Below, in pieces: positions 47,399 through 64,000 of a stretch of DNA of 64,000 nucleotides. Origin of the DNA: a virus. Lineage: Duplodnaviria; Caudoviricetes. Position 1 is the stretch's first letter, and each line of letters begins with the position of its first letter. The notes below the pieces were generated by a model that ran no database searches, had not been told where the DNA came from, and worked only from the letters and a program-made list of their open reading frames with translations. The position numbers and the translations under genes were made by a program. The stretch lies in IMG/VR virus record IMGVR_UViG_3300006153_000003. The stretch is one strand, 5' to 3'.

Positions 47399-48427
47399 AT
47401 GGCTAATGCAAAAAATGCTAAGAATGCTAAAGACTTTTTAGTTAGTACGGCTGATTTCTCATTGTTTTATAATGATGTATTGGTGTGTACTGGTAACACA
47501 AACCTTAACGCATCAATTGAAGTGACAATGCAAGAACAAAATGTTAACGCAGGTAAAGGTAATAAATTGCTTTATTCTTACAAATATGGTAGGGAACTTG
47601 CGGTTACTCTGGAAGCCGCCGACTGGAAAATAGAGTATATTGCTGCGCAGAGTGGGACAAAGATTACAGAAGGTTTGAGAGATGCCTATGAAATGGCAAA
47701 GTGTATTACTATCGTAGATGGTGTCGGTATACTTCCTTCTGTTCCAATTGGTGATGTTGCAGTCGAATTAGCAGACGGGACTATTGTAACTGTAAAAGCT
47801 GAGGGCACTACTATTGACTTAACAAAATTTGGAGTTGTAAAGGGAACTGTAAAAGTTACATATCAGTACAAGAGAATTGCAAAATCCATTGTTATTGATG
47901 CTGAAAGTTCTCCAGATGTTTATAAACTTGTACTTGTTGCAGATAAGCACAATAACAAGATTGGTAAGGTTGGTAGCGTTCAGATCGTAATTCCTTCCTA
48001 TCAACCGAGTGGTAACTTTACCATTAACTTTACGCCGGATGGAGTAACAAGCGTGAATATTGATGGTAAAGCCTTGGCAGTCGAAGGTGATACTTGTGAG
48101 GATGGATCTGGTGTATATGCTTACATCTATGATTTTGAAGAGGAGACTACTACTTTCCATATCACTGAACTTGCTGCTACCCCAGCTACAATCGAATTAA
48201 CTACTGCAGGCGCTACCCAGGAGATCTCCGTTATTGGTTTGAAGGGGGTTATGTATAATCCAATTGAGCTTGAGAATACGGAATGTACTTTTGTGAGCGA
48301 CAATCCCGAGATTGCAACGGTGGATGAATCTGGAGTTGTTACCGCAGTTGTGGCCGGATCCACAAAGATCACTGTAGCATACAATGGCGTTGAGGATGAG
48401 GTTGATGTCCAAGTAACTACGGAATAA
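47399..48427 (+). CDS. major tail (tube) protein with C-terminal Ig-like (Big_2) domain
   Basis: SDNPEIATVDESGVVTAVVAGSTKITV Big_2 motif; synteny. Confidence 0.85.
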   Translation: MANAKNAKNAKDFLVSTADFSLFYNDVLVCTGNTNLNASIEVTMQEQNVNAGKGNKLLYSYKYGRELAVTLEAADWKIEYIAAQSGTKITEGLRDAYEMAKCITIVDGVGILPSVPIGDVAVELADGTIVTVKAEGTTIDLTKFGVVKGTVKVTYQYKRIAKSIVIDAESSPDVYKLVLVADKHNNKIGKVGSVQIVIPSYQPSGNFTINFTPDGVTSVNIDGKALAVEGDTCEDGSGVYAYIYDFEEETTTFHITELAATPATIELTTAGATQEISVIGLKGVMYNPIELENTECTFVSDNPEIATVDESGVVTAVVAGSTKITVAYNGVEDEVDVQVTTE

Positions 48428-48489
48428 ACGATAAAATAATACGGTAGATGGTTGAAACATATCATCTACCGATAAATACGGAGGTATTC

Positions 48490-48738
48490 ATGGAAGAAAC
48501 AAAAGGAGTTCTGGAAGAAATCACAGAAGAAGTTCTTCCTCGGAAACCCAAAAGAACTAATGGCTTTAAAATAAAAAAATGCAGAGTTCTTTCCTATAAT
48601 AAAGCAACGAAGGACTTAGATATACTATTTGATCAATACGGTATCCGGATTCATGATGCGGTGGATCCCCAGGATGATATGGTTGAAATCAAATACAAAG
48701 GTACTATAGGGAAACCCAACTTTGCTTATAAGATGTAG
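48490..48738 (+). CDS. hypothetical phage protein
   Basis: GGAGG RBS before ATG 48490. Confidence 0.7.
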   Translation: MEETKGVLEEITEEVLPRKPKRTNGFKIKKCRVLSYNKATKDLDILFDQYGIRIHDAVDPQDDMVEIKYKGTIGKPNFAYKM

Positions 48739-48745
48739 GTGCATA

Positions 48746-48928
48746 ATGTGTAAGAATGCATATGAAAAAAAATCTGAACGTACAAAGAAAAAGATGATAT
48801 TCTGCAAATTGAAAGGAAATGATGCAACTCTATCTCAGTTATGCATCAGCCAACGTTTCTGTTCAGAAAAAGATAAATATATTCCAAATAATCAAAAAGG
48901 AAATTGTAAGTATTATGAGTGTAAATAG
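48746..48928 (+). CDS. small Cys-rich protein
   Basis: AGGTG RBS; several Cys. Confidence 0.6.
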   Translation: MCKNAYEKKSERTKKKMIFCKLKGNDATLSQLCISQRFCSEKDKYIPNNQKGNCKYYECK

Positions 48929-49016
48929 ATTAGTGTATATGAATGGGTAAGATATATGGACTAATCTATTTTAGTTGTATGTCTTACCCATTTTTTTACG
49001 AAATGAGGTGATGACA

Positions 49017-49205
49017 ATAAATGAAGTAAAAATAGATCCTGAATACAATTGCGTTTGGGCAGAGGAATATTCATATCTTTCTGACCACGGAATTAAATAT
49101 ACATTTGTAAAAACTGTAAATGGTGTTACTGTATGGAAATACCGTAAAAATGAACGATTGTTTAAAACATTGGCAGATTTTTATAAAAATGTTTATTACA
49201 GATAA
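49017..49205 (+). CDS. small DUF5659-like protein (ATA or ATG 49011 start)
   Basis: Paralogue of 43542..43739 (LS.HGI.Y.FVK..NG.T..KY.K). Confidence 0.7.
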   Translation: MNEVKIDPEYNCVWAEEYSYLSDHGIKYTFVKTVNGVTVWKYRKNERLFKTLADFYKNVYYR

Positions 49206-49230
49206 TTATTTTAGGAAGGAGTAATTATAT

Positions 49231-49620
49231 ATGAATGAAGTATTAAAAGGAATTGATTGGGCACAGGTAATTTCTACTCTTTGGACTGTTGTGCTATTAC
49301 CAATCATTACATATATCGGTACACAGGTCGCCAACTATGCAAAAGCAAAGAAAATTGATAAGTATACAAATATTCTTTATCAGAATGTTGTAGATGCTGT
49401 TAAAGATGTATACCAGGCATATGTTGAAAATCTCAAAGGAACCGCTGGCTGGGATGATGAAACCAAGGAAGGTATGAAGGAACTGGCAAAAACAAAGACC
49501 ATTCATGCTCTAACTACATCCATTTATCAGTCTCTTAAAGCCGCAAACAGTGATTTTGACGAATATCTTGATAGTCTAATTGAAACAGCAATTTATGATC
49601 TTAAGAGAGCTAACGTATAA
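49231..49620 (+). CDS. putative holin
   Basis: Single N-terminal TM, DAVKDVYQAYVENLK and IETAIYDLK as in Firmicutes phage holins. Confidence 0.65.
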   Translation: MNEVLKGIDWAQVISTLWTVVLLPIITYIGTQVANYAKAKKIDKYTNILYQNVVDAVKDVYQAYVENLKGTAGWDDETKEGMKELAKTKTIHALTTSIYQSLKAANSDFDEYLDSLIETAIYDLKRANV

Positions 49621-49638
49621 TGTAAAGTGAGGATTAAA

Positions 49639-50151
49639 ATGGAACCGATAGCAGAATTAACTACCATAGACTACTCTTCTCTTTTCATTGCTTCTTTTTC
49701 TGTCCTTATTGGTATAAAGGCTATCGTCTCTCTTTTCGAATGGATATTTGACAAGTTAGGACTTGAAACAAAATGGATGCGTAAAAAAAGAGAGGAACGT
49801 GAATTATTGATACAGACTTCCCAAGGACTTAATAAATTGCAAGAAAAGCATGAAGAAGATATAGAAAGATCTGATAGGCGAGACGAAAAGATTTCCAATG
49901 ATATTGAAAAACTCACTCAGATGTTCATTGATAAAGAAATTGATGATATGCGCTGGGAAATCAATAATTTTGCAATAAGAGTATCTGAAGGCAAACCTTG
50001 TAATAAGGATAGTTTTCAACATTGTATTCATATTTATGAAAAATATGAAAAAATACTGGAAGAAAATAGCCTCGAAAACGGTGAAGTTGAAATATCAATG
50101 GAATTAATCAATGAAGCATACAAACAAAAATTGAAAAACGGAGACTTTTAA
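49639..50151 (+). CDS. membrane protein with coiled coil (lysis-associated?)
   Basis: N-terminal TM, coiled coil. Confidence 0.6.
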   Translation: MEPIAELTTIDYSSLFIASFSVLIGIKAIVSLFEWIFDKLGLETKWMRKKREERELLIQTSQGLNKLQEKHEEDIERSDRRDEKISNDIEKLTQMFIDKEIDDMRWEINNFAIRVSEGKPCNKDSFQHCIHIYEKYEKILEENSLENGEVEISMELINEAYKQKLKNGDF

Positions 50152-50288
50152 ATGAGCGGTTTCCATGTGGAATCGCTCTTTCATATAAGCTTCTTTGTCT
50201 GAGTGTCAATGGATTCAGACAAGGGAGTTTATCGGGAGGGAAGAGGTCATTGAACTTCTCTCCCACTTCTTATAGAAAGGAAGCAAAA

Positions 50289-50717
50289 ATTATCAAACTC
50301 ATTATAGACAATACTGTTGTGGATAAATATAATAAATATTATTTTTCTCTTCATCCACGAGCAAAGAAGAAAGCTATTGAACATCCCTATCATCCATCCA
50401 TAAATACTTGGATGATTTTACCCAGAATTCAAATGAATGCATTAAAGCAAAAATGGAAAGAGTTTATAGTTTTCTGGATTCATGAAATTGGATTAGAAAA
50501 TAAAAGACTTGAAAGTTTTGAAATGATATTTACCACATATATGCCAACTAAGCGCAGAATCGACTGCGATAATACAGTTCCTAAGTTCATTTTAGATGGA
50601 TTTAGTGAAGCTGGATTTATTGTGGATGACGATGGGAAACATCTAAAGTCACTTACTTTAAGAACTGGATATGATAAATATAATCCAAGAACAGAAATAG
50701 AGGTTATTGAAATGTAA
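50289..50717 (+). CDS. RusA-like Holliday junction resolvase (probable ATT start)
   Basis: RRIDCDN..PKFILDG...GFIVDDD...PRTEIEV; AGAAAGG 8 nt before ATT. Confidence 0.8.
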   Translation: MIKLIIDNTVVDKYNKYYFSLHPRAKKKAIEHPYHPSINTWMILPRIQMNALKQKWKEFIVFWIHEIGLENKRLESFEMIFTTYMPTKRRIDCDNTVPKFILDGFSEAGFIVDDDGKHLKSLTLRTGYDKYNPRTEIEVIEM

Positions 50718-50902
50718 TGTACTCTTATGAAATATCAAAATTATTAGAAAAACATAATCGCTCTCTCCCAGCATCTTTATATATCAATATGATTCAATCT
50801 TCTCCTCAGATAAATCACACAAAATATAATCCATATGGAAATTATTACGAATCTTGGGATACTCAAGGTGCTTATTGGAAGTATTCTATATATAAAGAGT
50901 AA
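50717..50902 (+). CDS. hypothetical protein
   Basis: Coupled TAATG start. Confidence 0.6.
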   Translation: MYSYEISKLLEKHNRSLPASLYINMIQSSPQINHTKYNPYGNYYESWDTQGAYWKYSIYKE

Positions 50903-51016
50903 TTTGATTTAATAGTCATAAAAAATTTACATAATTTTGCAGAAAAACTCTTTACTCTTCTCTTAATGAATGGTATTCTTTATTATATCATTTCAAACTA
51001 TGAGGAGGTCATTGAG

Positions 51017-51268
51017 ATGGCAAGAAGAAAAGTTGAAGAGAAAAATTATGATGAATTAATTGAAATGTCAACTGAAAGAATTGAAGAATTGAAAGAAGAA
51101 TTGAAGCAGGAGAAAGCAAACCTGAAACAGTTGCAAAAGGACAAGATCAGGTACGAAGCTTTTGCTGAGAAACAGAAAAAGGAAGAAGAAATTAAGAAAG
51201 CTGCAGAATTGCTTGTATCATCCGGAAAGAGTCTGGAAGAAATCGAAGCCTTTTTGCAGGCAGAATAA
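51017..51268 (+). CDS. coiled-coil protein with own terminator (moron-like)
   Basis: GAGGAGG RBS; terminator 51290-51319. Confidence 0.75.
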   Translation: MARRKVEEKNYDELIEMSTERIEELKEELKQEKANLKQLQKDKIRYEAFAEKQKKEEEIKKAAELLVSSGKSLEEIEAFLQAE

Positions 51269-51289
51269 TTAAAAATGTCGATGATATAT

Positions 51290-51319
51290 AGGATCTGTCT
51301 TTATGGACAGGTCTTTTTT
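51290..51319 (+). terminator. intrinsic terminator
   Basis: AGGATCTGTC/GACAGGTCTT stem plus T run. Confidence 0.7.
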
Positions 51320-51351
51320 ATTGTAAATACTTGATTTGGAGGAATTTATAA

Positions 51352-52086
51352 ATGGTAAAAAAAGATGTAAAAATAAAAGAATATATAAATATAGAAGAAA
51401 AAGCAATCATCACAAATCATTTGGTTGATTCCTATTTTGTAGAAAGACTTGATGGAACTATCGGTTATACTCCATATATGGTTGACGTTGCATTAGTAAC
51501 TGCATTTTTCTTATACTGCGTTGAAGGTATTAAATTTGACGAAGAAGAAAATATTTATAATACCGTAGTTTCTGATAAAGAACTTATGGACCTGTATACT
51601 ACTACCCTATCAGTACAGCTTGATAATGATGAACACCCAAATATTAAGATAGTTAGAGAAATCAACTCCATTATGAGAGACGTTGCCGATATGGTTGAAT
51701 TCAGAAAACAGCAGATTGTACATAATAATTCTGTTCTGAATGATAAATTGCTTGAAATTCTGGATATGCAGAAGCAAGTAGAATCCTTAAGGTTGGAAAT
51801 TGCTGAGAACGAGAACAAATTGTTACAGCAGCAATATAAGCAAAACGTATACAATGAAAAAGTGATGAGTCATATGACCCCAGAAGAAACGGCTGAGTTG
51901 AATCGAAGAATGCTAGATGAGAATATGGATTTTGGTAAATTAGCTGAGTTAGTAACTGAGAAATTTATTCACAGCGATATTCACACTTCAAATGTTGTTG
52001 AGATGAAACCTGCTCAAAAAAGAAAACCTGGGAGACCTAAGAAGTCTACGAGTACCGGCGCTATAAAGGAAACAATTAAAAAATAA
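51352..52086 (+). CDS. putative tail assembly chaperone
   Basis: Synteny; helical, basic tail. Confidence 0.5.
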   Translation: MVKKDVKIKEYINIEEKAIITNHLVDSYFVERLDGTIGYTPYMVDVALVTAFFLYCVEGIKFDEEENIYNTVVSDKELMDLYTTTLSVQLDNDEHPNIKIVREINSIMRDVADMVEFRKQQIVHNNSVLNDKLLEILDMQKQVESLRLEIAENENKLLQQQYKQNVYNEKVMSHMTPEETAELNRRMLDENMDFGKLAELVTEKFIHSDIHTSNVVEMKPAQKRKPGRPKKSTSTGAIKETIKK

Positions 52087-52484
52087 TGGGTGGAGTATTC
52101 AAAAATATGGCCTCTTTGGTGAACGCATTGCAGGCCGAGATGAGAGAAGCTATGGAAGAGGTGACTGAAAAATCTCTTAAAGATGCAGATAATGAAATGC
52201 AGGTTTTTGATGATGGTGGAACTCCTGATCGTTACGATAGAGTTTATAATTATGAGAATTCTCCCGATACACATGGTGTTTCTGGATCCGGCAATGTTGT
52301 AGATTCTGATATTTATCTTAATGATGGTTACGATTATTATACAGGAACTTTTTCCACCCCAGAAGTATTCAAAGCTGCTGAATCTGGAAGTTATGGAATT
52401 GTGGGTACACCAGGAACATGGGCAAGAATAGAAGAAGATATTCAGCAGAATATAGATAACAGCTTCGGGAAGAGATTTAATTAA
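52086..52484 (+). CDS. HK97 gp10-like tail completion protein
   Basis: Size, P.RYDR pattern, synteny. Confidence 0.5.
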   Translation: MGGVFKNMASLVNALQAEMREAMEEVTEKSLKDADNEMQVFDDGGTPDRYDRVYNYENSPDTHGVSGSGNVVDSDIYLNDGYDYYTGTFSTPEVFKAAESGSYGIVGTPGTWARIEEDIQQNIDNSFGKRFN

Positions 52485-52732
52485 ATAAAAGACGAATTTC
52501 AACCGCATATGATTAGGAAGCGTTCCCCCAAGAATCTGACAGCGATTACGCTTCCTCATCCAAATTTACTGCCAGAGATTACATGGATATAACAATGAAC
52601 ACAAAGTCTAACATTCTTGACCGCATTTTAAATGTTATCCTCTGCATGTACTATTTTATCATAGGATAAATATGTATGCAATTATTATAGAACGACTTAT
52701 TTCGACATATAACCACTACTCTTTTATCTCAT

Positions 52733-53485
52733 CTAAATGGCAATATGGATACATTAAAATGTGTCACAGCAGGAGGAATGGCTGCTGAAGGATGGTATCG
52801 AGTATATGAAGCTACTGTAGCAGTTTCAAGCATTTCTGGTTTTGGGTCAGGTGGCGATAATGGGATAATTTTTATTTCTACGAATTACAACTATTCTTCT
52901 CCGATGTCTTGCATATTATTATATACAGTGGAATATGGCGGCATTATCCATTGGAACTGCATATCTTGTTCCTCAAATAATGATGTTAGAATTATTGACA
53001 AAATTCGCTTTAGTCTTATTCCTGGATCTAAAGTATCTATTGATATACACTATCGCACATCAAATAATAACAACTTTGAAATCAAACTCATCTCCAATAG
53101 ATTTGGGAAAAAATTCCATCGATTGGAAAATGCGCAGCCTATCACAGATAATCCGTTAACAATCTCTGAGTATGATATTCCAGTGACCTCTGATCTGGAT
53201 GTTGAAAGAACCGTGTTTATAGAAGGCGGGATCTGGTATAAAACAAATAAGTTTGTTTTGATTTCTTTGAATAAAACCATTACAAAGGATACCGGAGGAT
53301 GGAATACGTTATCTTCAGCTATACCAACCGCAAAAGAACAATGCTTTGCACCATACTTGTCTGCGGATTTAGGAGTACAAGGAAATTTAATGGTTATTAA
53401 TAACTCATTACAAATAGATATTCCAAGCGCTGCGATTGGTAAGACATTCACCGTTAGAGGGCAGATAATGTATAGGTTAGCATAG
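52733..53485 (+). other. silent tail-fibre C-terminal cassette 1
   Basis: Begins at in-frame TCTCAT-CTAAATGGCAA site; no RBS; internal CTCTGAT at 53188. Confidence 0.8.
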
Positions 53486-53489
53486 GGCT

Positions 53490-53981
53490 TTATACAGGAT
53501 ACTTAAAGAAACGAACTCTAACACGTTGCGAAACAGTAGAATATATGTACCATACTCCAACATCCCGAAATACGTGATCCATAACGGAATTGTCATCAAA
53601 ATGTGACATAACAACCGGAATATAATTATCACTATTCGGAGCGTCTGATATACGAACAAAAGAACCGCCTGTCGTAACCACAATACAGTCAACATAGCTA
53701 AAATCAGAGTTTGTGATATAGATTCTCCATCCTGCCCAGTCACTACCATTATAGAAATTAAACGCCAATGGGGCACTATCAATACCAAATAAAGCTACAA
53801 CTATAGAAGTGGGTGATCGTTTCAAAATAACCGCACTTCCATATTTATAACTATTATTTGGCAAATCGTCGCTTAAGTAGCTGGAACCGGATAAAGAATA
53901 TGCGAAAAAACCAATAGGTAGCTTAGTTGCCTTAAGTAAAACACTTTCACTTATCATAACATTTCCGATATTGCCATTTAG
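53490..53981 (-). other. silent tail-fibre C-terminal cassette 2
   Basis: Begins at CTAAATGGCAA (53981-53971), in frame; ends YIPVV...FFKYPV like the expressed fibre. Confidence 0.88.
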
Positions 53982-54045
53982 ATGAGAAGACAAACATTCT
54001 TTTTGCCATACTATAGCCTAAAAATTACGAAAGGAATTCAAACAA

Positions 54046-54222
54046 ATGAATACAACTAATGAAACTGTTACTATTTCGAATGAGCAGCAGTTAAATTCAA
54101 AAATAATTGATGTGATTATTGATATTTTAGCAAATAATAATTTATCTATTGCTGATGCAAAAAATATTCTATATGTAACATCAAAAAAATTATCTCAGCA
54201 AAAAGTTAAATCTTCTTTATAA
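54046..54222 (+). CDS. small hypothetical protein (58 aa)
   Basis: Read by hand: AAAGGA RBS, MNTTNETVTISNEQQLNSKIIDVIIDIL... Confidence 0.5.
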   Translation: MNTTNETVTISNEQQLNSKIIDVIIDILANNNLSIADAKNILYVTSKKLSQQKVKSSL

Positions 54223-54496
54223 TTTGACTTAACTTCTGTGATATATTTTCTAGTTCACTTCTAATCTCCCATGATTCGGTTTGGTCGCTCCCTGTATTAG
54301 AATTAATATTTTTGAGTTCCTTTTCAATATTCTCCAAATAATCTTTCGGAGAATGTTCATCAAAACCATCTGATTGAATATTTCTTATTGCGTCCATAAT
54401 ATTACAATTTTCCGGATCCCCATCATCAAAACAATTATTATTAAAAATGCATTCACTTACACATTTCCCGTTAACAAAAGGGCAGAATGATTCCAT
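54206..54496 (-). CDS. small Cys-rich moron protein
   Basis: CPF...C...C...C N-terminus, AGAGG RBS, antisense. Confidence 0.65.
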   Translation of the reverse strand: MESFCPFVNGKCVSECIFNNNCFDDGDPENCNIMDAIRNIQSDGFDEHSPKDYLENIEKELKNINSNTGSDQTESWEIRSELENISQKLSQIIKKI

Positions 54497-54677
54497 ATAA
54501 AAATACCTCTTTCAAAATTTTATAATATTATTATATAACAATACACCATATTTTCCATATAATTTTTATTTGCTAAGCGAATAAACAAGATTATTTCATG
54601 TGTAGGAGAAAAAGATTAACAATCACTCCTACTATTTTTATTATAAAATTCAAGAATAAAAGGAGTACATAAAATAT

Positions 54678-54935
54678 ATGAACAACACTAAAACAATTGA
54701 ATTGCTGCGAAAACGGAATACTCAACTACAAGAAGAACTTGACCGATTAAAGGAATTAAACACGAAACATTCCGACAAACCAGAAGATAAGAAAATTTCA
54801 GAATTAATCGCTGACCTAGAGAACATTCGCAAAGAATGGATGAATGTTTTGGAAGAATTAAATCATGATCGAGAAGAATACTGTAAATTATTAGAAGACT
54901 TACATACTATTCGAGAAACATTCAAAATGATATAA
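54678..54935 (+). CDS. coiled-coil hypothetical protein
   Basis: AAGGAG RBS. Confidence 0.75.
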   Translation: MNNTKTIELLRKRNTQLQEELDRLKELNTKHSDKPEDKKISELIADLENIRKEWMNVLEELNHDREEYCKLLEDLHTIRETFKMI

Positions 54936-54968
54936 GAATAAAATTTCACAGGAAAAGAGGTGATAAAT

Positions 54969-55766
54969 ATGATTGCAATGGATTTTGAATATGATGGTGA
55001 ATATTTAAAAAATTACGGATTTACAATCTGTAGTATAAATGAAAATGGTTTCAATACCATCACTACGGATTCACAGGCAACTTTTAATAATGTAAAATTA
55101 ATGAATGGTAAACTATTTGAAATTACTACTTCTCAGTATGAAGATCGTTTGGAAATCAATTTCCAAATATGCAAGTATACTTCCGGCCATAAATTACATC
55201 CTATTTCCCATTACGAGGCAAGAGAATTAAAACGTTGGTTAAATAGACCTACCTTTAAGAGATTTAAGTTTATACAGCCTTACTGGGCAGATATTTATAT
55301 GGAAGGAAGCTTTAATGTAAAGAATATAGTATGTGGTGGAGAAATCTTTTTACTAGAACTAACTTTCATTAGTAATCATCCCTTTGCACTACACGAACCT
55401 ATCACCCATAGGATATTCACCTCTGCTACTAACGAATCTTATACTTTTTTTGACACATCAGATGAGATCGGATATATATACCCAGACATAAAAATCACTT
55501 GTCTGCAAAACGGGAAATTAGAAATAACCAATTCTAACGAAAATAGGATTACCGAAATAAAGAACTGCTCATCTGGTGAAATTATACAATTCACTCCAAA
55601 ATTATTGATGTCTACTTCTCTCCCGTCCCATAAGATTCAAAACGATTTCAATTATAAGTTTTTCAGAATATCTAACTCCTATAACAATCGTAAGAATACT
55701 TTAACTTTCTCACTTCCTGTAGAAGTAGAAATAACATATTGTCCTTATGTGAAGGTGGTGATGTAA
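54969..55766 (+). CDS. distal tail protein (Dit)
   Basis: DFEYDGEYL..YG N-terminus, RWLNR, SDEIGYIYPDIKI; precedes Tal. Confidence 0.8.
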   Translation: MIAMDFEYDGEYLKNYGFTICSINENGFNTITTDSQATFNNVKLMNGKLFEITTSQYEDRLEINFQICKYTSGHKLHPISHYEARELKRWLNRPTFKRFKFIQPYWADIYMEGSFNVKNIVCGGEIFLLELTFISNHPFALHEPITHRIFTSATNESYTFFDTSDEIGYIYPDIKITCLQNGKLEITNSNENRITEIKNCSSGEIIQFTPKLLMSTSLPSHKIQNDFNYKFFRISNSYNNRKNTLTFSLPVEVEITYCPYVKVVM

Positions 55767-55767
55767 T

Positions 55768-58700
55768 ATGGCAATAAAGATAAATTTTGATAGTGCTGGC
55801 AGACCAGAAATCCCCACATTCATACTTTCTGAGAAAAATGGAGATCATGTAGGTGTATTAAGTACAGTATCTCAAATTCACACTATAGGTAATTTAAATT
55901 CTTTTTCTGAATTTTCCTTTTCTATATATAAAGTATTAAACGAAGAAAAATGTGAATTCTGGGATGATATAGATAATTTCCATATCATGTATATTCCAGA
56001 ATGGGATAAATGGTTTGAAATTTATGTAGAAATAGATGAAAAAGATAGTTGTGTAAAAAATGTAACAGCTAAAACTATCCAAGAAGCTGAATTATCTCAA
56101 ATTTTACTGTTTGATATAGAAATAAATACAGAAAAAGATATAGAGAAGGATGATTATGTTCCTACTGTTCTATTTGAGCACAATAATGCAAAAGCTTCCT
56201 TATTACATAGATTGCTGGCTGATAAGGCACAGCACTATAAGATAATTCATGTTGATAGCACTATAGCCAAGAAACAACGGAGTTTTAGCTTTAACAATAT
56301 CTCTATTCATGATGCATTCCGTGAAATCTCTGAAGAACTTCACTGTTTATTTGTTTATGGTGAAGATAGTGGTTCAGAAGGAATCCCAAGAACAATTTCT
56401 GTATATGACCTAGAATCGAATTGTAATAAATGTGGCTACCGTGGAGAATATATGGGTATATGTCCAGAATGTGGTAGTCTGGATATTGATGAAGGGTACG
56501 GCGAAGACACTACTATCTTTGTATCAAATGAAAATTTGGCAGAAGGTGTTACCTTTTCAACAGACACGGATTCTGTAAAAAATTGTTTCCGTCTTGAAGC
56601 TGGTGATGATGATATGACAGCAGCAATTGTAAATATAAATCCTTCTGGTACACGATATATCTGGTATTTCCCAGATTATATGAAAAAACGTATGTCAAAA
56701 GGGCTTGTAGAGAAAATAGATTCTTTCAATACTCAATTAATCTACTATGAAAAGTCTTATCAGGAAAACTTGAATGCAACGATATTAAGCAACTATAATC
56801 AACTTATTGATAAATACCGGACTTATAAAAACACTTTGGAGAATATATCAGTCCCGATTACAGGATATCATAATTTGATGAAGATCTATTATGATATCAT
56901 AGACTTTAAAGGATATCTGCAAAATTCCCTGATGCCTAATATAGAAATATCAGAAACGAGTGTCACACAGCAAGCAGGTTTATTGACGGCAGGCAATCTC
57001 TCTCCTGTTTCTGTTGAGAACACATCCTATATTTCCCTGGCAACCGCTAATAGCGTGATTTTGTCATATGCCAAGGTTTTTATAGACACAGCAAAATACA
57101 AGGTAAAAGTAAAATCATCTAGTTTGACAGGAACTACTTGGACAGGTAATTTTACAGTTGTTAGCTATACAGACGACGAAGATACTGCTGACAGTCGTAC
57201 TATCACCATACAGATCAATGATAATTATGAGAATTTTGTAAAGCAAAAAATAGATAAGATTCTTACGAAGGAAAATGAAGATATCAGTATTATCGGATTG
57301 TTCAAGAAAACTGATGTAAATTTCAAAAATGATTTGAAGAAGTATAGCTTATCTTGTCTTCAGGTCATACATGATGCTTGTCAGGCATGTTTAGACATAT
57401 TGATTGAGCAAGGTATCTCAAACATGAAATCTGATTTATATGAAAAAATATATAAACCGTACAGAGATAAGCTAACCTATATCGAACAGGAAATTAAAGT
57501 GCGTGAATCAGAGATTGCCATCGTTGACGCAATTTATGATAAAGATGGTGATGTCGTAGCAGATGGCATGAAATCACTTATACAGAAAAAACGCAGAGAA
57601 ATTTCTAAAATTCTTGATTTCAAAAAGTATCTTGGAGATTACTGGAATGAATTTTGTTCCTTTAGACGTGAGGATTTGTGGAAGAATACTAACTATATTT
57701 CAGAAGGTTTGGACAATGCACAGCTATTCAAACAGGCAAAAGAATTCCTGGAATCAGCAAAAAAGGATCTCATTAAATCAGCAACACAGCAGCACAGCAT
57801 CTCTACTACCCTTAAGAATCTTTTAGTAATGGAAGATTTCAAACCTCTTGTCGAACATTTTGCAGTAGGAAACTGGTTAAGAATCGGTGTTGATGATAAA
57901 GTTTACAAACTTCGCTTGATTTCTTATGAGATTGATTATGAAAATCTTGATACTATTACTGTTGAATTCTCTGATGTCGTAGACGCATTTGGATTAATGA
58001 AAGATATTGAAGATATACTGAATCAGAGCCAATCCATTTCCAACTCCTATGATTCTGTAAAACACCAGGCTGAAGAGGGAGACAAGGCAAATGGTAGGTT
58101 GAAAGGATGGGTTGGTAAAGGGCTTGAAGCCACTACTATCAAAATCATGAATAACGCCGATGACCAAGATTATGTTTTTGACCGTCATGGAATGGTTTTC
58201 AGAAAAAAGGATCCTGATACGGATACCTACTCTCCTGTCCAAGTGAAAATCATAAATTCCACTATTGCTATGACCACTGATAATTGGATGACTTCTAAGG
58301 TCGCTGTCGGAGAATATATTTACCTGGATCCACGAGACTGGAAATATAAAACCGGATATGGGGTAATTGCTGATACTTTGATTGGTAATCTCATTCTTGG
58401 TGAAGAGGTTGGTATTTATAATGATAAAGGAACCATGACCTTCAAAGAAGATGGTCTGACGGTCACGAATGGCATTAATACTTTCCAGGTAAATCCAAAT
58501 TCCAAGACACTTTTGACTCTCTCCCATAATGATAGGAGGATTCTATACGTGGATGAGACTGGCGAATTGCATATTGAAGGTGACGGTTCTGCTCTTGATA
58601 TCACAGCTAATGGTACAGTGGAAGGCATGAATACTAAGATAACTCAGAATGCAAAAGCTATTACATTAGAGGCCAATCGTGCATCAGAAGCAGAAGGAAA

Positions 58701-59286
58701 ATTGTCAGCTTCTATTGAAGTAAATGCAAACGCTATTACTCAAAGGGTACAAAAAGATGAATTTGGTTCATACATGGAGCAGAATTATGAGAGCTTTTTG
58801 ATTGGATTTAATAAAAGTAGCAAGGTAATTCAGATAACCGATGGAGAAATCGCTATCTATGATAATTCCAAAACCAATAGTAAAAAGCGTGCAAGTTTCG
58901 ATGAACGTGGCAATAGTTTTTGGCGAGATGGTTATCGTATTGGTACAATAGGTACGAATAAATTAAAAGACTATCCATCAAAAAAAGGACTAGATTTTGA
59001 CCTGGAAACAGATGGTGCTTATATGACGTGGGCCTATAGAAATAAAACCGATGATGATGTTTATACCATGAAATGGACATATGCTGCTGAAAACTATGGT
59101 GATTATGCTGCTGATATGTTACATGCGGGGTGTGATATAGATATGCATAATTTCAATATATATAACGCAAAAATCTCAGAAGGATCTGTTAAATTCAATC
59201 TTCCAGGTATTACAGATATATTTGAAGCTGGCGGTATACGATGGAATTTCCAGAAAGGAAGATTAGTTGATGCAGCAGTCGTATAG
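55768..59286 (+). CDS. baseplate hub/Tal-like minor structural protein
   Basis: 1172 aa after Dit; VGNWLRI..DDKVYKLRLISYEIDY..TVEFSD hub motif; coiled-coil extension. Confidence 0.8.
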   Translation: MAIKINFDSAGRPEIPTFILSEKNGDHVGVLSTVSQIHTIGNLNSFSEFSFSIYKVLNEEKCEFWDDIDNFHIMYIPEWDKWFEIYVEIDEKDSCVKNVTAKTIQEAELSQILLFDIEINTEKDIEKDDYVPTVLFEHNNAKASLLHRLLADKAQHYKIIHVDSTIAKKQRSFSFNNISIHDAFREISEELHCLFVYGEDSGSEGIPRTISVYDLESNCNKCGYRGEYMGICPECGSLDIDEGYGEDTTIFVSNENLAEGVTFSTDTDSVKNCFRLEAGDDDMTAAIVNINPSGTRYIWYFPDYMKKRMSKGLVEKIDSFNTQLIYYEKSYQENLNATILSNYNQLIDKYRTYKNTLENISVPITGYHNLMKIYYDIIDFKGYLQNSLMPNIEISETSVTQQAGLLTAGNLSPVSVENTSYISLATANSVILSYAKVFIDTAKYKVKVKSSSLTGTTWTGNFTVVSYTDDEDTADSRTITIQINDNYENFVKQKIDKILTKENEDISIIGLFKKTDVNFKNDLKKYSLSCLQVIHDACQACLDILIEQGISNMKSDLYEKIYKPYRDKLTYIEQEIKVRESEIAIVDAIYDKDGDVVADGMKSLIQKKRREISKILDFKKYLGDYWNEFCSFRREDLWKNTNYISEGLDNAQLFKQAKEFLESAKKDLIKSATQQHSISTTLKNLLVMEDFKPLVEHFAVGNWLRIGVDDKVYKLRLISYEIDYENLDTITVEFSDVVDAFGLMKDIEDILNQSQSISNSYDSVKHQAEEGDKANGRLKGWVGKGLEATTIKIMNNADDQDYVFDRHGMVFRKKDPDTDTYSPVQVKIINSTIAMTTDNWMTSKVAVGEYIYLDPRDWKYKTGYGVIADTLIGNLILGEEVGIYNDKGTMTFKEDGLTVTNGINTFQVNPNSKTLLTLSHNDRRILYVDETGELHIEGDGSALDITANGTVEGMNTKITQNAKAITLEANRASEAEGKLSASIEVNANAITQRVQKDEFGSYMEQNYESFLIGFNKSSKVIQITDGEIAIYDNSKTNSKKRASFDERGNSFWRDGYRIGTIGTNKLKDYPSKKGLDFDLETDGAYMTWAYRNKTDDDVYTMKWTYAAENYGDYAADMLHAGCDIDMHNFNIYNAKISEGSVKFNLPGITDIFEAGGIRWNFQKGRLVDAAVV

Positions 59287-59309
59287 ATAAACTGGAAAGG
59301 GGAAATATC

Positions 59310-59498
59310 ATGGCCAATATAAATAAAAACGAAGGCAGAGCTTATATTATGCCAAAAGGTACTCCTGTAAATATAGAAGAATCACCTTCTTTAAATGGAC
59401 AAGTACCCACCTATTCATTAGAGATGAATTTATTAAAAGAAGTCAATCAAAAATTAGATTTATTACTCACATCACTAAAAATATCAATAAAGGAGTAA
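59310..59498 (+). CDS. small hypothetical protein
   Basis: AAAGGGG RBS. Confidence 0.65.
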   Translation: MANINKNEGRAYIMPKGTPVNIEESPSLNGQVPTYSLEMNLLKEVNQKLDLLLTSLKISIKE

Positions 59499-59506
59499 TC
59501 TTTAAT

Positions 59507-59731
59507 ATGGAAAAACCATTACTTTTAGTACGCGAAGAGTTTATGAGCGATCTGGCAGATTTGATTAATCAATCACGTCTGCCTTTTGTTATTATAGAGC
59601 CTATATTAGAGAAATTTTTAGAAAATGCCAGAGGTGCTATCAAACAGCAATTATCGGATGAAAAATTTCGATACGAAAAATATTTAAAGGAAAAGGAAAA
59701 AGAAGAATCAGGAAAAAATTCTGATGAGTAA
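59507..59731 (+). CDS. small hypothetical protein
   Basis: AAGGAG RBS; terminator 59740-59771 follows. Confidence 0.7.
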   Translation: MEKPLLLVREEFMSDLADLINQSRLPFVIIEPILEKFLENARGAIKQQLSDEKFRYEKYLKEKEKEESGKNSDE

Positions 59732-59824
59732 AATATATAAAGCTCTTAGTTTCGTCTAAGGGCTTATTTTTATGGATTCTCAAGCAATTATGCATTTGCT
59801 TGTGTGTCCAGGAAAGGAGTCAGG

Positions 59825-60844
59825 ATGATACAGCAAAATGGATATCTAGCAGTACAACATATACGGGTTCGTATCAATCATAATATCATCAGCACTGTTA
59901 ATCTGGTTCAAGGTGACACAGCCCGTGAATTTCATTTTTTCTTTGACGACTACATCATCCCAGAAGGTGCAGAATTTCGTATTTATATTCGTAAACCGTC
60001 TGGTTGTGAAATATATAGTCATTGCTACTTACGAAATGATGAAATCGTTGTGCAACCCACTTTACAAATGGTTGCCGAAAAAGGACAGAACTTAGGTCAG
60101 ATACAAATTATAAAGGATGACAAATTGCTTAACACTTTCGTCTTCTATCTTGCTATCGAAGAAAATCTTATCTTCTCCTCCTCTATTACTTCTTCAAACG
60201 AATTCGATCTAATCAATGATTTCATAGATACTGCAAGGCGGTTAATCCCAGAAATAGAAAAAACACTTGCAGATGCCCAGGAGCAAGAAGCTAAACGAGA
60301 GGATTCAGAGAATGATAGAAAAAATAATGAACTGGTCAGAATTCTTAATGAAGATGAACGAGTAAATAATGAAAATACACGTATAGCTAATGAAATTATA
60401 CGAAATGAAAACGAAGAAGTCCGGAAAGCAAATGAGATTGAACGTCAAAAAAATACAGGCATTGCCATAAAAGAAGCCAATACTGCCAGAGATAAGGCAA
60501 ACGAAGCTACTAAGAATGCAAATGACACTGCTCAAGACATAAAAGATAAATTAGCTAATGGTGAATTTAGTGCAAGTATCCACGTAGGTGATGTAACAAC
60601 TGGAGATGCTAGCAGCGAAGTCGAAATCACAAATACTGGCACGGCTAAAGATGCTGTATTTAATTTTAAAATCCCCAAAGGAGATACAGGTGAAAGTGGT
60701 ATCACTACTCCCATCAGCGGTTTTCTCTCTTTATCGGTAGATGATTTAGGCAATCTATATGTACATTACAATGATGAACCCGAAAATCAAGAATTTGAAT
60801 ATGATCCGGATACCGGAAGTTTATATTATATCACACCAGATTAA
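59825..60844 (+). CDS. BppU-like upper baseplate protein
   Basis: VQGDTARE...IRKPSG N-terminal BppU motif; E..R..NE coil; NTGT...AVFNFKIPKG. Confidence 0.8.
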   Translation: MIQQNGYLAVQHIRVRINHNIISTVNLVQGDTAREFHFFFDDYIIPEGAEFRIYIRKPSGCEIYSHCYLRNDEIVVQPTLQMVAEKGQNLGQIQIIKDDKLLNTFVFYLAIEENLIFSSSITSSNEFDLINDFIDTARRLIPEIEKTLADAQEQEAKREDSENDRKNNELVRILNEDERVNNENTRIANEIIRNENEEVRKANEIERQKNTGIAIKEANTARDKANEATKNANDTAQDIKDKLANGEFSASIHVGDVTTGDASSEVEITNTGTAKDAVFNFKIPKGDTGESGITTPISGFLSLSVDDLGNLYVHYNDEPENQEFEYDPDTGSLYYITPD

Positions 60845-60867
60845 TAAGAAAGGAAGGATGATAATAT

Positions 60868-61920
60868 ATGGGAAAAGTATTAATTGGAAATATTAAGGGA
60901 CCTCAAGGACCAACCGGCGTAAGAGGCGGTATGTGGTTACAGGGAACTGCAGTTACAGGTACAAGTACAGAAGAAACTTCATTTCCTGATTCAAATATCA
61001 CTTACGCAATTATCGGAGACGCTTATTTTAACGTAGAAACGTGTAATGTATATGCATGTACTAAAGCCGGAAATCCAACTGATGCAAAGTGGGTTTATAC
61101 TGGGAATATTAAAGGTGTAAAAGGTGACACTGGTAGCACACAATCAATTCAGAATGCGGTTCTTGAGTTTAATGAAGCTCTTACTCGCGAAAATATTGAA
61201 TCAACTGATACTGTTGAGACAATCTTTGGAAAGGTTAAGAAATATTTTACAGATTTAGGCTCTGCTGCTTTTATGAATGTTGTAAATAATGTCACTCAAT
61301 CAGAAGCAGGACAAGCGGTACTTGATGCTGCTGTCGGAAAATACCTTGAAGAGAAAAAGTTTGATATAAGTAAAATTATAGCAAATCGAAACATCACAGA
61401 ACCCGGATTTGTTATGGATGGCAAAACCGTTGCCGACGCTCTTACTGAGCTAAATGGCAAATTCGCAGTAACAATTATAGAGGGGGACTTGTTTGAATAT
61501 GCGGAATTGTTACCTGTCGGATTCTATACGTTTGGAGCAAATGCAAATACGACTAATGTTCCGGACTCCCCATCTGCTGGATGTATTATAAAACGCACAT
61601 CCTCACATATTTCCATTATTCTTGTGGCATATGGAACTGGAAAATATTATTGCGTTGAATATGGTGGTAATTGGCGAAAGTGGAACAAATTAGTACTAGA
61701 CTCTGATTTAGAAGTAATTTCATTTTCCCAAGAGATTATAGCCGATACAGCTACAGCATTAAGTTCAGCTCCACAAAGTAAACAATATATACCTGTCGTA
61801 ACTACAGTATCAGGAACACCGAGATATGCGGGAAGTTTTTGCTTTACATCCGGCTCATGGTATTTTACAGCTAATAATACACAAAGGTATGGATTTGCTT
61901 TTTATAAGTATCCTGTATAA
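60868..61920 (+). CDS. tail fibre/receptor-binding protein with exchangeable C-terminus
   Basis: GNIKGPQG collagen-like start; in-frame CTAAATGGCAA at 61450-61460 (ELNGK) and CTCTGAT at 61701. Confidence 0.88.
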   Translation: MGKVLIGNIKGPQGPTGVRGGMWLQGTAVTGTSTEETSFPDSNITYAIIGDAYFNVETCNVYACTKAGNPTDAKWVYTGNIKGVKGDTGSTQSIQNAVLEFNEALTRENIESTDTVETIFGKVKKYFTDLGSAAFMNVVNNVTQSEAGQAVLDAAVGKYLEEKKFDISKIIANRNITEPGFVMDGKTVADALTELNGKFAVTIIEGDLFEYAELLPVGFYTFGANANTTNVPDSPSAGCIIKRTSSHISIILVAYGTGKYYCVEYGGNWRKWNKLVLDSDLEVISFSQEIIADTATALSSAPQSKQYIPVVTTVSGTPRYAGSFCFTSGSWYFTANNTQRYGFAFYKYPV

Positions 61921-62015
61921 GAGGAGATCCCATGATTTCAGCGAAAGGAAATAGAAAACCGAATTCACAGCATCTTTATAATATTGTTACAAGATAATGA
62001 GTTGATTTTCGTAAT

Positions 62016-62501
62016 TTACGCCGGATACTTGTAAAAACGAATAGTCATATTTTGTTCAGTAGGTGATATCACAAGCCACGAATTTGCGCCCCGATTTCCA
62101 TAAACTGAAACGCCTGTATAATCACTACTTACTCTTAATACAACAGGGATATAATTCATGCCTGTTATGTTGGGGACATAGTTATTGCTACCACGGACAG
62201 TATCCATTGTGACATCCGTATAGCCTAAATCAGAGGTTAGAACATATGGAATCCATGTAACTTCTTGTTCTCGATTAATCATTGAACCTGAGTACAACCG
62301 AGAAGGAATATCTAATAGTCCAGTATACACAATTGCCAAGAAATATGAATCTCCAGCAAAATATCCAGGTCTAGAATATCCGAGGGTTCTAATAATAACA
62401 CCGTAATTCCCTGGAAAATTTCCGCCAGAATTTTTCCATTCGCCTATACTCCATATTTTGAACGAATTTCCCCTAGATATAGTATTTATATTGCCATTTA
62501 G
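62016..62501 (-). other. silent tail-fibre C-terminal cassette 4
   Basis: Frame open from CTAAATGGCAA (62501-62491): LNGNINTISRGNSFKIWSIGEW...; ends YIPVV...FYKYPA. Confidence 0.88.
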
Positions 62502-62607
62502 ATGAGAAGTTAAACTTTTCGAAAGACACTTGTAATTTAGATTTTTATGTCATATAATATCGGTAAAAATCATTTTGATAAATAAAGCGTATAGAGGAGG
62601 AATATTA

Positions 62608-63267
62608 ATGATTTCTACAAAAGATATGGCATTTTATTATCCTAATGGTGAAGAAATCAAAAAAGAAATATTTTTAGATTTCTATAGTAAATGCTATTAT
62701 ATGAATAATAATGTTTTTGTCGAAGATGAGATTGAGAAATTATTAGATAAAGGTAAAAATAATTTGACAGAAGAGGATTTGTTTAATATTTTAGCTTGGA
62801 AGATTGGGAAGATTAATCACAAAAAATCCAATCCAGATGATGGTATAATATATTATAAGGATTGGAACAAAGAACTTTTAGAAGCTAAAATATATAAAGA
62901 TTCATTGGACAAAGAGTTTTTTTCTTGCATTAAAAAAAGTTTATTAGAAATTAATGGTGAAGAATTGATCGATTATATAAACAAATTGAAAGATATAAAT
63001 CATCTAGGACCAGTGTATATTGTCACATTGAGATATTTTTCAACAAAAGGGAAATATCCAATTTATGATAGATTTGCATATAAAGCAATACAAGCCATTT
63101 TAAATAATCATATTCCTTTTGATTTAATTCCTGAAAAAAATACATTAAATAAAAACATTAATGATATATATAATGAATATTTAAAAAAATTACAAAATAT
63201 TTTTCCAGAGAATTTTAGCGAACGAAAAGTTGACCAAGCATTGTGGGTTTATGGACATTTATTTTAA
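62608..63267 (+). CDS. hypothetical protein, possible HhH-type DNA glycosylase-like fold
   Basis: LAWK, HLGPV, YPIYDRFA, RKVDQALWVYG; own promoter TTGTAA(62530)-17-TATAAT(62553). Confidence 0.6.
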   Translation: MISTKDMAFYYPNGEEIKKEIFLDFYSKCYYMNNNVFVEDEIEKLLDKGKNNLTEEDLFNILAWKIGKINHKKSNPDDGIIYYKDWNKELLEAKIYKDSLDKEFFSCIKKSLLEINGEELIDYINKLKDINHLGPVYIVTLRYFSTKGKYPIYDRFAYKAIQAILNNHIPFDLIPEKNTLNKNINDIYNEYLKKLQNIFPENFSERKVDQALWVYGHLF

Positions 63268-63345
63268 ACACTTTGATTAATAATATTGTCACTCAACTAA
63301 GTATCTAATATCTATATTATAATTTGATTTTTAATTCTTAAAGTA

Positions 63346-63380
63346 ATAAAAGACATCAGTACCTATCTGGTGTCTTTTAT
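63346..63380. terminator. bidirectional terminator
   Basis: ATAAAAGACATCAG/CTGGTGTCTTTTAT between convergent genes. Confidence 0.75.
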
Positions 63381-63419
63381 CAATTATATGTAATTATTGT
63401 AGTTGATTATTTTGTGCAT

Positions 63420-64000
63420 TTATGCACTCAAATATTTTTTATGATGATACTGTACACTTGCTTGGTCAACAGTACAGTAAATCATAGTAGTTTCGAGTTT
63501 TGCGTGTCCTAAGAAGCGAGAAACTTCTTGTAAGGGCATTCCTCTATTCAATGCGTTAGTTGCTGCTGTCCGACGAAAACGATGTGGATGAGCGTCTTCA
63601 ACACCAGCGCGTTTGCCAATGCGTCGAATAATATCTTCTGCACCAGCTTTTGTTAATCGTTTGTTTGGTTTCCTTAATCCTACAAATAAAGCAGGGTTAT
63701 CATCATCCCGGCTATCTAAATATTCTTTCATGTACATACATGATCTGTCGTTCAAGTAAACAATTCTTTCTTTTCCTCCTTTCCCATACACGAGTAAGTC
63801 TCTTGTCATGAAATTCAAATCTTTTCTATCAAGACTTAAAAATTCACTTACTCGAACTGCTGTACTATACAAGAATTCTAACATTGCCTTATCTCTGAGA
63901 TTAGTGCAGTTTCGAGATAGTAATTCCCTTTCTTCGTCTGTGTAAGGTTTCTTTAGAATCTGTTCCACCTTGATATCTGATACGAGAACCATAGGATTTT
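63420..64000 (-). CDS. XerC/D-like tyrosine recombinase, probable shufflon invertase (5' end outside window)
   Basis: TAVRVSE, GKGGKER, HPHRFRR, LGH, TTMIY; adjacent to fibre cassettes. Confidence 0.92.
   Translation of the reverse strand, partial: NPMVLVSDIKVEQILKKPYTDEERELLSRNCTNLRDKAMLEFLYSTAVRVSEFLSLDRKDLNFMTRDLLVYGKGGKERIVYLNDRSCMYMKEYLDSRDDDNPALFVGLRKPNKRLTKAGAEDIIRRIGKRAGVEDAHPHRFRRTAATNALNRGMPLQEVSRFLGHAKLETTMIYCTVDQASVQYHHKKYLSA

Follow-up and report, generated by a model that had tools for sequence, protein, structure and literature searches.

At the 3' end of pilV, the R64/Rci shufflon of IncI1 plasmids occupies a compact stretch of about 2 kb that is not known to contain other genes; Rci suppresses deletion between direct sites. 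A systematic survey found tail fibres among the common targets of inversion. In the Rin shufflon of Bifidobacterium prophages the sites are 11 bp long and asymmetric, and variants were found when prophage and virion assemblies were compared (Mavrich et al. 2018, PMC6109161). Min of p15B, Gin of Mu, Cin of P1 and the FR-phi Gin shufflon switch fibre C-termini by inversion for host range, and Min has six sites and many isomers (PMC13418256). A BV01-like Phocaeicola phage has directional 10-bp motifs between its cassettes and six isoforms, with all configurations present in reads (PMC13596623, a 2026 preprint). A full-text literature search returned no described shufflon whose sites enclose baseplate, tape-measure and recombinase modules. 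The stretch analysed here, 64,000 nucleotides of the Caudoviricetes virus record IMGVR_UViG_3300006153_000003 (the window), has tail-fibre cassettes on both sides of its baseplate genes. We interpret this locus as a dispersed, multi-slot tail-fibre shufflon that spans tail modules, with a probability of about 0.8.

The window contains four alternating sites, a constant fibre N-terminus with alternative in-frame C-termini, and a recombinase gene, the activity of which is predicted. From left to right it reads flank T, cassettes A and B, segment M (the baseplate block), cassettes C and D, and segment R (the recombinase block, reversed). Tip C is expressed and the other three cassettes are silent. 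Four copies of the 11-bp word CTAAATGGCAA are present, at 52733 (+), 53971-53981 (-), 61450 (+) and 62491-62501 (-). Dinucleotide-preserving shuffles of the window give an expectation of 0.05 copies, and none of 100 shuffles reached four. All four copies are read in the frame L-N-G, the one at 61450 being codon 195 of a 350-amino-acid (aa) fibre open reading frame (ORF) at 60868-61920. Each of the remaining three begins an open frame that lacks a start codon (A, B and D). A 20-bp form is identical at the three silent sites (52727 +, 53968-53987 - and 62488-62507 -), and the expressed site has a left arm, ACTGAG, unlike theirs. Cassettes B, C and D share the motif YIPVV and an (F/Y)KYP(V/A) end, and A differs. 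The word count, the reading frame, the shared 20 bp, the odd left arm and the common ending of three of the four C-termini had all been reported in an earlier, sequence-only reading of this DNA, and each of them holds.

Assemblies of other samples contain the constant fibre N-terminus joined to tips that are silent in the window. As relatives we used about 55 contigs from Logan, ENA and JGI that exact-protein matches returned; their identity to the window is 87-100%. A search with fibre residues 1-197 returned proteins of 291-483 aa with 92-100% identical N-termini, all of which diverge directly after T-E-L-N-G. When proteins and contigs are combined, at least 16 different C-termini occur on one 194-aa N-terminus (92-100% identical), and these include B and D. 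Proteins P0005 and P0106 consist of the N-terminus and cassette B, and P0004 of the N-terminus and D. In L038 (SRR23653044) window positions 60832-61460 (100%) are joined to the reverse complement of 53990-53275 (99.6%), giving P0005. In L071 (ERZ15043491) the whole A/B pair (99.7%) lies between the fibre N-terminus and the recombinase flank, giving P0106. The junction with D was seen in five runs (L039-L043), and no fusion of the fibre N-terminus with cassette A was found among the assemblies. The sequence-only reading had proposed nested inversions that would place B behind the fibre N-terminus, followed by A on the opposite strand, and this is the arrangement in L038 and L071, two independent assemblies. 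Its expected junctions with B and D were thus recovered, and the one with A was not. It had also raised the possibility that the 52.7-54 kb block is a misassembly. This is unlikely, since an independent assembly with k-mers of 31 (L023, from ERR2497918) reproduces window positions 49946-62500 at 100% identity; the repeats are 20 bp long, shorter than k, so a simple misjoin at the sites is improbable.

Cassettes behave as mobile pairs, and the pairs occupy different slots in closely related genomes. The interior of the A/B pair (1,227 bp) is 100.000% identical in 11 contigs, in which it points either way and is surrounded by seven combinations of flanks. Another pair family (99.7-100% identical) is placed variously in the expressed slot, two storage slots or the slot adjoining the tube-side flank, and a third has two locations, the expressed slot and a place over 20 kb upstream. 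Over more than 9 kb L022 matches the window at 99.92-100% identity, yet its A/B pair is flipped, another tip is expressed and segment R has the opposite orientation. L016 has a 6,874-bp baseplate block that is 100% identical to that of the window, but other cassettes adjoin it on each side. Comparison of L054 with L050, and of L016 with L022, shows pairs inverted in place while their flanks stay identical. These flips and the reversed segment R of the window show that inversion occurs at the sites. Pairs also flow horizontally between diverged lineages, since A/B in L071 is 99.7% identical to window positions 52724-53990, while the neighbouring fibre N-terminus and recombinase flank are only 87-89% identical.

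The junctions define the recombination site and place the exchange within ten bases. We collected 77 distinct junctions from more than 40 contigs, which combine 29 left flanks with 34 cassette starts. Their consensus is T-W-C-T-N-A-N / Y-TAAATGGCAA, then N-W-T. The ten bases TAAATGGCAA are invariant in all 77 junctions, the preceding base tracks the flank, and the next base tracks the cassette, so that the exchange takes place inside the ten bases. The site encodes a hinge, T-E/S-H followed by L-N-G-(K/N). The motif E-L-N-G-K is found at the same place in more distant fibre proteins, so that the recombination site lies on a conserved structural junction. Several short Logan contigs start or stop within a few bases of a site (L013, L014, L015, L021, L042 and L061), and L015 corresponds exactly to the recombinase block, from site to site.

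The array in the relatives is larger than the part visible in the window. Single contigs carry six sites, and overlapping contigs carry 8-10, equivalent to 4-5 cassette pairs. The split layout seen in the window recurs in the relatives, with more slots. The sequence-only reading was right that tips interchange at the fibre, but its four tips belong to an array of 8-10 sites, which also delimit the recombinase and tape-measure blocks and another tail segment. Plus and minus sites alternate in every contig. Recombination between inverted sites preserves this alternation, and all segment orders and orientations can be reached.

The order of the structural segments also varies between assemblies. 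The tape-measure segment is followed by M, R and the endolysin in at least 14 contigs, and by R and then M in L011 and L012. Flank T is followed by the tape-measure segment and a further tail segment, S0, in one 52-kb contig (L050 plus L065) and also in L053 and L068. It is followed directly by S0 in L027, L030-L037 and L052, and by M and reversed R in the window, where L023 confirms the step from T to M. What precedes segment M is thus flank T, the tape-measure segment or the recombinase segment, and S0 comes after T or after the tape-measure segment. The tape-measure segment encodes a protein of 2012 aa (L045) or proteins of 1319 and 658 aa around a DUF3800 gene (L053, L065), followed by 139-aa and 36-aa genes. 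Its N end has an AAA_15/AAA_21 ATPase gene and a gene for a 278-aa partner (L050:1536-3895), and a Tad2-like gene is located at the W end of S0 (L027:5355-5867).

There may be a second expression slot in L027 (4290-4380, -), L030 (10764), L033 (7754) and L037 (1736). In these contigs an ATG immediately after the stop codon of a 245-aa gene begins an 8-codon leader, M-Y-Y-Q-I-I-T-E, which runs in frame into the site and cassette. In L027 this slot holds cassette A of the window. The last codon of the leader is TAG rather than GAG in other contigs, closing the frame, and several silent flanks F and I have the same TAG or a stop three codons earlier. The 245-, 256- and 269-aa genes that precede other sites were considered as paralogous constant regions and rejected, as BLASTP found no homology to the fibre N-terminus.

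A mechanism based on inversion would link these observations. An Xer-like recombinase would act on short asymmetric sites at the hinge T-E/L-N-G between the constant shaft and the tip. Tips are stored in 4-5 slots parted by the tape-measure segment, the extra tail segment, M and R; a slot holds a convergent (tail-to-tail) pair between two inverted sites. Recombination between inverted sites would flip a pair, a segment, or several of them together, and an even number of inversions would bring a stored pair into the fibre slot and leave the structural genes co-oriented. The movement probably proceeds by such intramolecular inversions and is probably still ongoing within populations. The intermediate with an inverted baseplate block might occur and might phase-vary baseplate expression. 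A broader version, in which 8-10 alternating sites continually permute and flip whole structural segments together with the recombinase gene, is a tentative proposal to which we give slightly less than even odds. If it is true, 8-10 stored tips and half-tips would cycle through the fibre slot and the second, start-codon-led slot, and selection would keep only isomers with co-oriented late genes. Tail-module gene order would in that case be programmed to vary, and the inverted intermediates would provide tail assembly with a built-in off state.

Several observations weigh against shuffling by inversion within single genomes. Every comparison is between assemblies of different samples rather than within the reads of one population. 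The site is asymmetric, and inspection by eye found no obvious dyad symmetry around its core. Six of 60 true contig ends fall at sites, only modestly above expectation; breaks at sites are expected if neighbours vary within a sample, and the small excess is a weak hint of this. Some of the slot diversity might come from horizontal flow of pairs, with no shuffling inside a genome. About 35 contigs, of which many are not independent, link two structural segments; in them M, the tape-measure segment and S0 are never inverted relative to one another, and only R and cassette pairs are flipped. Large inversions are thus either strongly selected against or not the route. In addition, an ordinary tyrosine recombinase would delete the DNA between direct sites. 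Sites in direct orientation exist, for example T and the fibre site, and nothing here explains how deletion of essential genes is avoided. The main route for pairs might instead be exchange between DNA molecules, or excision and re-entry, using the same recombinase and sites and with the baseplate block never inverted. Exchange would require two genomes, co-replicating or co-infecting, to cross over at both of the sites that bracket a pair. In the excision route a segment and its pair would leave as a circle between direct sites, which are available, and re-enter at another site. Structural segments that are always co-oriented while their order and pairs vary would fit this account, and the nearly identical A/B pair in a diverged backbone, together with its presence in many lineages, shows that transfer between genomes does occur. 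However, inversions can be demonstrated at the sites from the flipped pairs and reversed R, and inversion with selection for co-orientation accounts for every state observed. Exchange between unlike slots would often leave a genome with a duplicated pair, and none was seen. We regard exchange or excision as unlikely to be the main route. It is very improbable that the upstream cassettes are inert relics of old duplications and that only the local pair beside the fibre recombines. The window alone cannot tell used from unused cassettes, and cassette A has a different C-terminus and is never seen on the fibre N-terminus. Nevertheless, B is fused to that N-terminus in two assemblies, the A/B pair is perfectly conserved across its seven flank contexts, and A stands behind a start-codon leader in L027.

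The tape-measure gene is absent from its usual place in the window. No ORF between the tube gene and the Dit-like gene (window 47399-55768) is large enough to encode a tape measure, as would be expected with its segment outside the T-C interval in this isomer. The segment may have been relocated past the recombinase block, as in L011 and L012, or it may have been lost through the direct sites T and F, giving a defective derivative. The layout of the window, with flank T, A/B and the baseplate block in succession, could then be a deletion derivative or a chimeric path through a shared pair instead of a viable rearranged genome. Deletion would require the direct site at flank T to recombine with the one that ends the tape-measure segment. 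The missing ORF agrees with this, the 2012-aa or 1319- and 658-aa proteins of the relatives are located in the segment that the window interval lacks, and flank T in most relatives is followed by the tape-measure segment or the extra tail segment. On the other hand, L023 assembles the same path without a break at the 20-bp sites, and this path therefore dominates in that sample. The source contig, of 158,582 bp, has ample room past the window for the segment in the position that it has in L011 and L012. A deletion derivative or chimera is rather unlikely.

The recombinase of segment R resembles Xer proteins. The ORF at 63420-64000 (-) is its C-terminal 192 aa and matches Pfam Phage_integrase (E 3.8e-40), in agreement with the tyrosine recombinase that had been recognized from the DNA. 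The full form of 330 aa is readable in L011 and matches Phage_int_SAM_4 and Phage_integrase. Among NCBIfam models it scores best on XerA, XerC and XerD without reaching the cut-off of any (XerA gives 216.6 bits against a cut-off of 220). The Xer-type alignment covers residues 56-321, and the XerC-like structure 4a8e in the PDB matches residues 53-318. The protein therefore has core-binding and catalytic domains without an arm-binding domain, as in Rin-type invertases. The gene is inside the array in all relatives, and its position and conservation suggest that this adjacent Xer-like enzyme catalyses the exchanges. In most relatives segment R is oriented opposite to the fibre, and it is reversed in the window. 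The next site in relatives is about 615 bp past the window end, and by analogy with L011-L015 a further cassette pair probably lies just past position 64000. The 230-aa protein of segment R has no Pfam, PHROG or NCBIfam match, and its gene is always tail to tail with the recombinase gene; the protein could be an accessory factor, a directionality factor or a passenger. In one lineage (L044-L048) an IS110-family transposase (DEDD_Tnp_IS110 / Transposase_20) is inserted beside the recombinase block, between the 230-aa-type gene and the next site, and in L044 no further pair follows it within the locus.

Each cassette appears to encode a receptor-binding tip with two domains. In the AlphaFold monomer model of the fibre, the N-terminal 200 residues have a predicted local distance difference test score (pLDDT) below 50 and were not interpreted. 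They are followed by two beta domains, at residues 207-277 and 283-347, the second with pLDDT 84-93. The tip model aligns with the R2 pyocin fibre (Z 8.6, root-mean-square deviation (rmsd) 2.4 Å, 77 residues), with phage K gp144's C-terminal domains (Z 8.1, rmsd 3.7 Å, 144 residues) and with the Mu fibre (Z 7.2, rmsd 2.7 Å, 71 residues). These Z values are borderline, and the resemblance to distal fibre domains is supported by the recurrence of fibre proteins among the top matches.

A second word separates the two tip domains. This inner site, CTCTGATTTAG, is present in cassettes C and D (Table 1), and the pLDDT dips at residues 278-280, the linker that carries its S-D-L codons. Half-tip chimeras across contigs break exactly at the inner word. 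Cassette C of the window is composed of half-tips N5-C4 and D of N3-C3, while L011 has N5-C3 and N4-C4. The inner block 61701-62235 is 99.3-99.6% identical in L011, yet it is inverted relative to its N-half. This second tier would let half-tips reassort, and the data fit exchange at the inner site by the same enzyme and homologous exchange equally. The outer and inner words both contain CTAAAT or its complement, which is a lead only.

The phage is, by its genes, an uncultured SPbeta-like siphophage of gut metagenomes, and the searches found no cultured phage closely related to it. Upstream genes in the window encode the terminase large subunit, the portal and a tube protein with an immunoglobulin domain, and neighbouring genes in relatives match Pfam YomU_Tube, YomV, YomW, YomX and YonB. 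The phage is common in gut metagenomes, several of them from mouse gut, and was found in about 100 blocks of the assembly index. Flank T genes in relatives come after the YomU-like tube gene and always adjoin a plus site. The sequence-only reading had placed two cassettes 7.5 kb upstream, beyond genes named Dit, Tal and BppU. The distance stands and Dit is supported by a family match, while Tal and BppU rest on position and size. Two small ORFs are located between the Tal-like gene and the 346-aa fibre-related gene. A 615-bp stretch at 53988-54602, between the site of flank C and an 85-aa gene, contains 58-aa and 96-aa ORFs; it is present in L016, L019, L021 and L022 and replaced by other sequence in L011, L017, L018, L020, L024 and L025. 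A scan of 52-64 kb for sigma-70 promoters and terminators found no more of either than expected from shuffles and is uninformative on independent promoters for the segments.

Searches outside this group of contigs found no comparable array. Megablast of 52000-64000 against GenBank phages gave no match. The best tblastn match to the Tal-like protein was 42% identical, in an unannotated 176-kb faecal phage, and no repeated inverted word of a comparable kind occurs in the 43-kb stretch around it. The array is missing from IMG/VR relatives of the fibre N-terminus (41-59% identity). A 12-mer that recurs in L002 and L003 was dismissed as chance, since it is inside unrelated genes. Exact-pattern scans gave no match in the viral collection, only one unrelated chance match among species genomes (a Lloydbacteria metagenome-assembled genome), and none in JGI metagenome contigs for the junction between D and S.

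Table 1. Sites, cassettes, genes and segment flanks of the fibre locus (positions refer to the window)
Feature	Position	Strand	Description
Flank T	51352..52484	+	Genes for 244-aa and 132-aa proteins; end of tube/chaperone region
Recombination site, flank T / cassette A	52727..52746	+	20-bp shared form; core 52733-52743
Silent cassette A	52733..53485	+	250 aa, no start codon at site; end ...YRLA
Silent cassette B	53490..53981	-	163 aa; YIPVV ... FFKYPV
Inner-site variant in cassette B	53700..53709	-	S-D-F codons; 9/10 bases match inner site
Recombination site, flank C / cassette B	53968..53987	-	20-bp form; upstream end of baseplate block
Segment M	53988..61449	+	Inverted sites at ends; small ORFs, Dit-like, Tal-like, 346-aa gene, fibre N-terminus
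DUF6558 tail protein, Dit-like	54960-55766	+	Family match and Dit position
Tal-like protein	55768-59286	+	1172 aa; position and size only
Fibre-related protein	59804-60844	+	346 aa; PHROG tail-fibre matches
Fibre constant N-terminus (within segment M)	60868-61449	+	Residues 1-194
Expressed tail fibre	60868..61920	+	350 aa: constant N-terminus residues 1-194 and cassette C residues 195-350
Expressed recombination site	61444..61460	+	Left arm ACTGAG and core; codons T-E/L-N-G
Inner site in cassette C	61701..61711	+	S-D-L codons at boundary of two tip domains
Silent cassette D	62016..62501	-	161 aa; YIPVV ... FYKYPA
Inner site in cassette D	62225..62235	-	Exact inverted copy of 61701-61711
Recombination site, flank S / cassette D	62488..62507	-	20-bp form; 230-aa-gene side of recombinase block
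Segment R	62508..64000 (past window end)	.	230-aa ORF 62575-63267 (+) and recombinase 63420-64000 (-)
Flank C			Baseplate block, upstream end
Flank D			Fibre N-terminus
Flank K			Block R, recombinase side
Flank S			Block R, 230-aa-gene side
Flank I			Before endolysin
Flanks N, F			Two ends of tape-measure segment
Flank Q/W			Known end of further tail segment S0 (Tad2-like, PhageMin_Tail genes); other end not reached

A dispersed shufflon would have consequences for host range, genome assembly and the study of receptors. The sites enclose essential structural modules, so host-range switching would be tied to large rearrangements of virion gene order. The locus would be a natural case of site-specific recombination that permutes kilobase-scale segments without deletion, and it raises the question of how deletions between direct repeats are avoided. 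It would explain the fragmented or non-syntenic assemblies of this abundant gut phage group, including the apparently missing tape-measure gene. Studies of receptor specificity could draw on at least 16 two-domain tips that are interchangeable and whose defined junctions lie at two hinge motifs.

Comparison with the described systems shows that the type of recombination is familiar and the layout is new. The sequence-only reading had compared the locus with R64, Gin and Cin. The shufflon logic holds, but the serine-invertase class of Gin and Cin does not apply. Gin, Cin and Min are serine invertases of compact systems with an enhancer/Fis mechanism, while the only recombinase at this locus belongs to the tyrosine family. 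This locus resembles R64 in being a probable multiple-inversion system of a tyrosine recombinase, with asymmetric sites that keep one side conserved; in each, the segments hold convergent alternative C-termini for a single constant N-terminus (PilV in R64, the fibre at this locus). Xer-type models give the recombinase of this locus its best scores, and the families listed include no Rci-specific match. Rin is similar in these points: a phage-encoded, tyrosine-family invertase is located beside the array, a constant N-terminus of the receptor-binding protein is combined with alternative cassettes, and short asymmetric crossover sites head each cassette. The Rin rix site, TTCCCTAACCC, is unrelated in sequence to the site here, and the inner second site is a feature of this system, unlike Rin. 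In Rin the cassettes lie together in a single block, with the invertase on one side and the constant gene on the other (PMC6109161), whereas here they occupy 4-5 slots over tens of kb, with A/B 7.5 kb upstream of the fibre site and slots of the relatives past the tape-measure segment. The BV01-like phage is likewise a gut phage with tail-fibre cassettes beside a recombinase, but its whole system fits in 1.7 kb at the distal end of one gene and encloses no structural module (PMC13596623). Tyrosine-recombinase fibre shufflons are thus already known from Rin and the BV01-like phage, and all of the described ones are compact; what is new in this locus is its dispersed layout.

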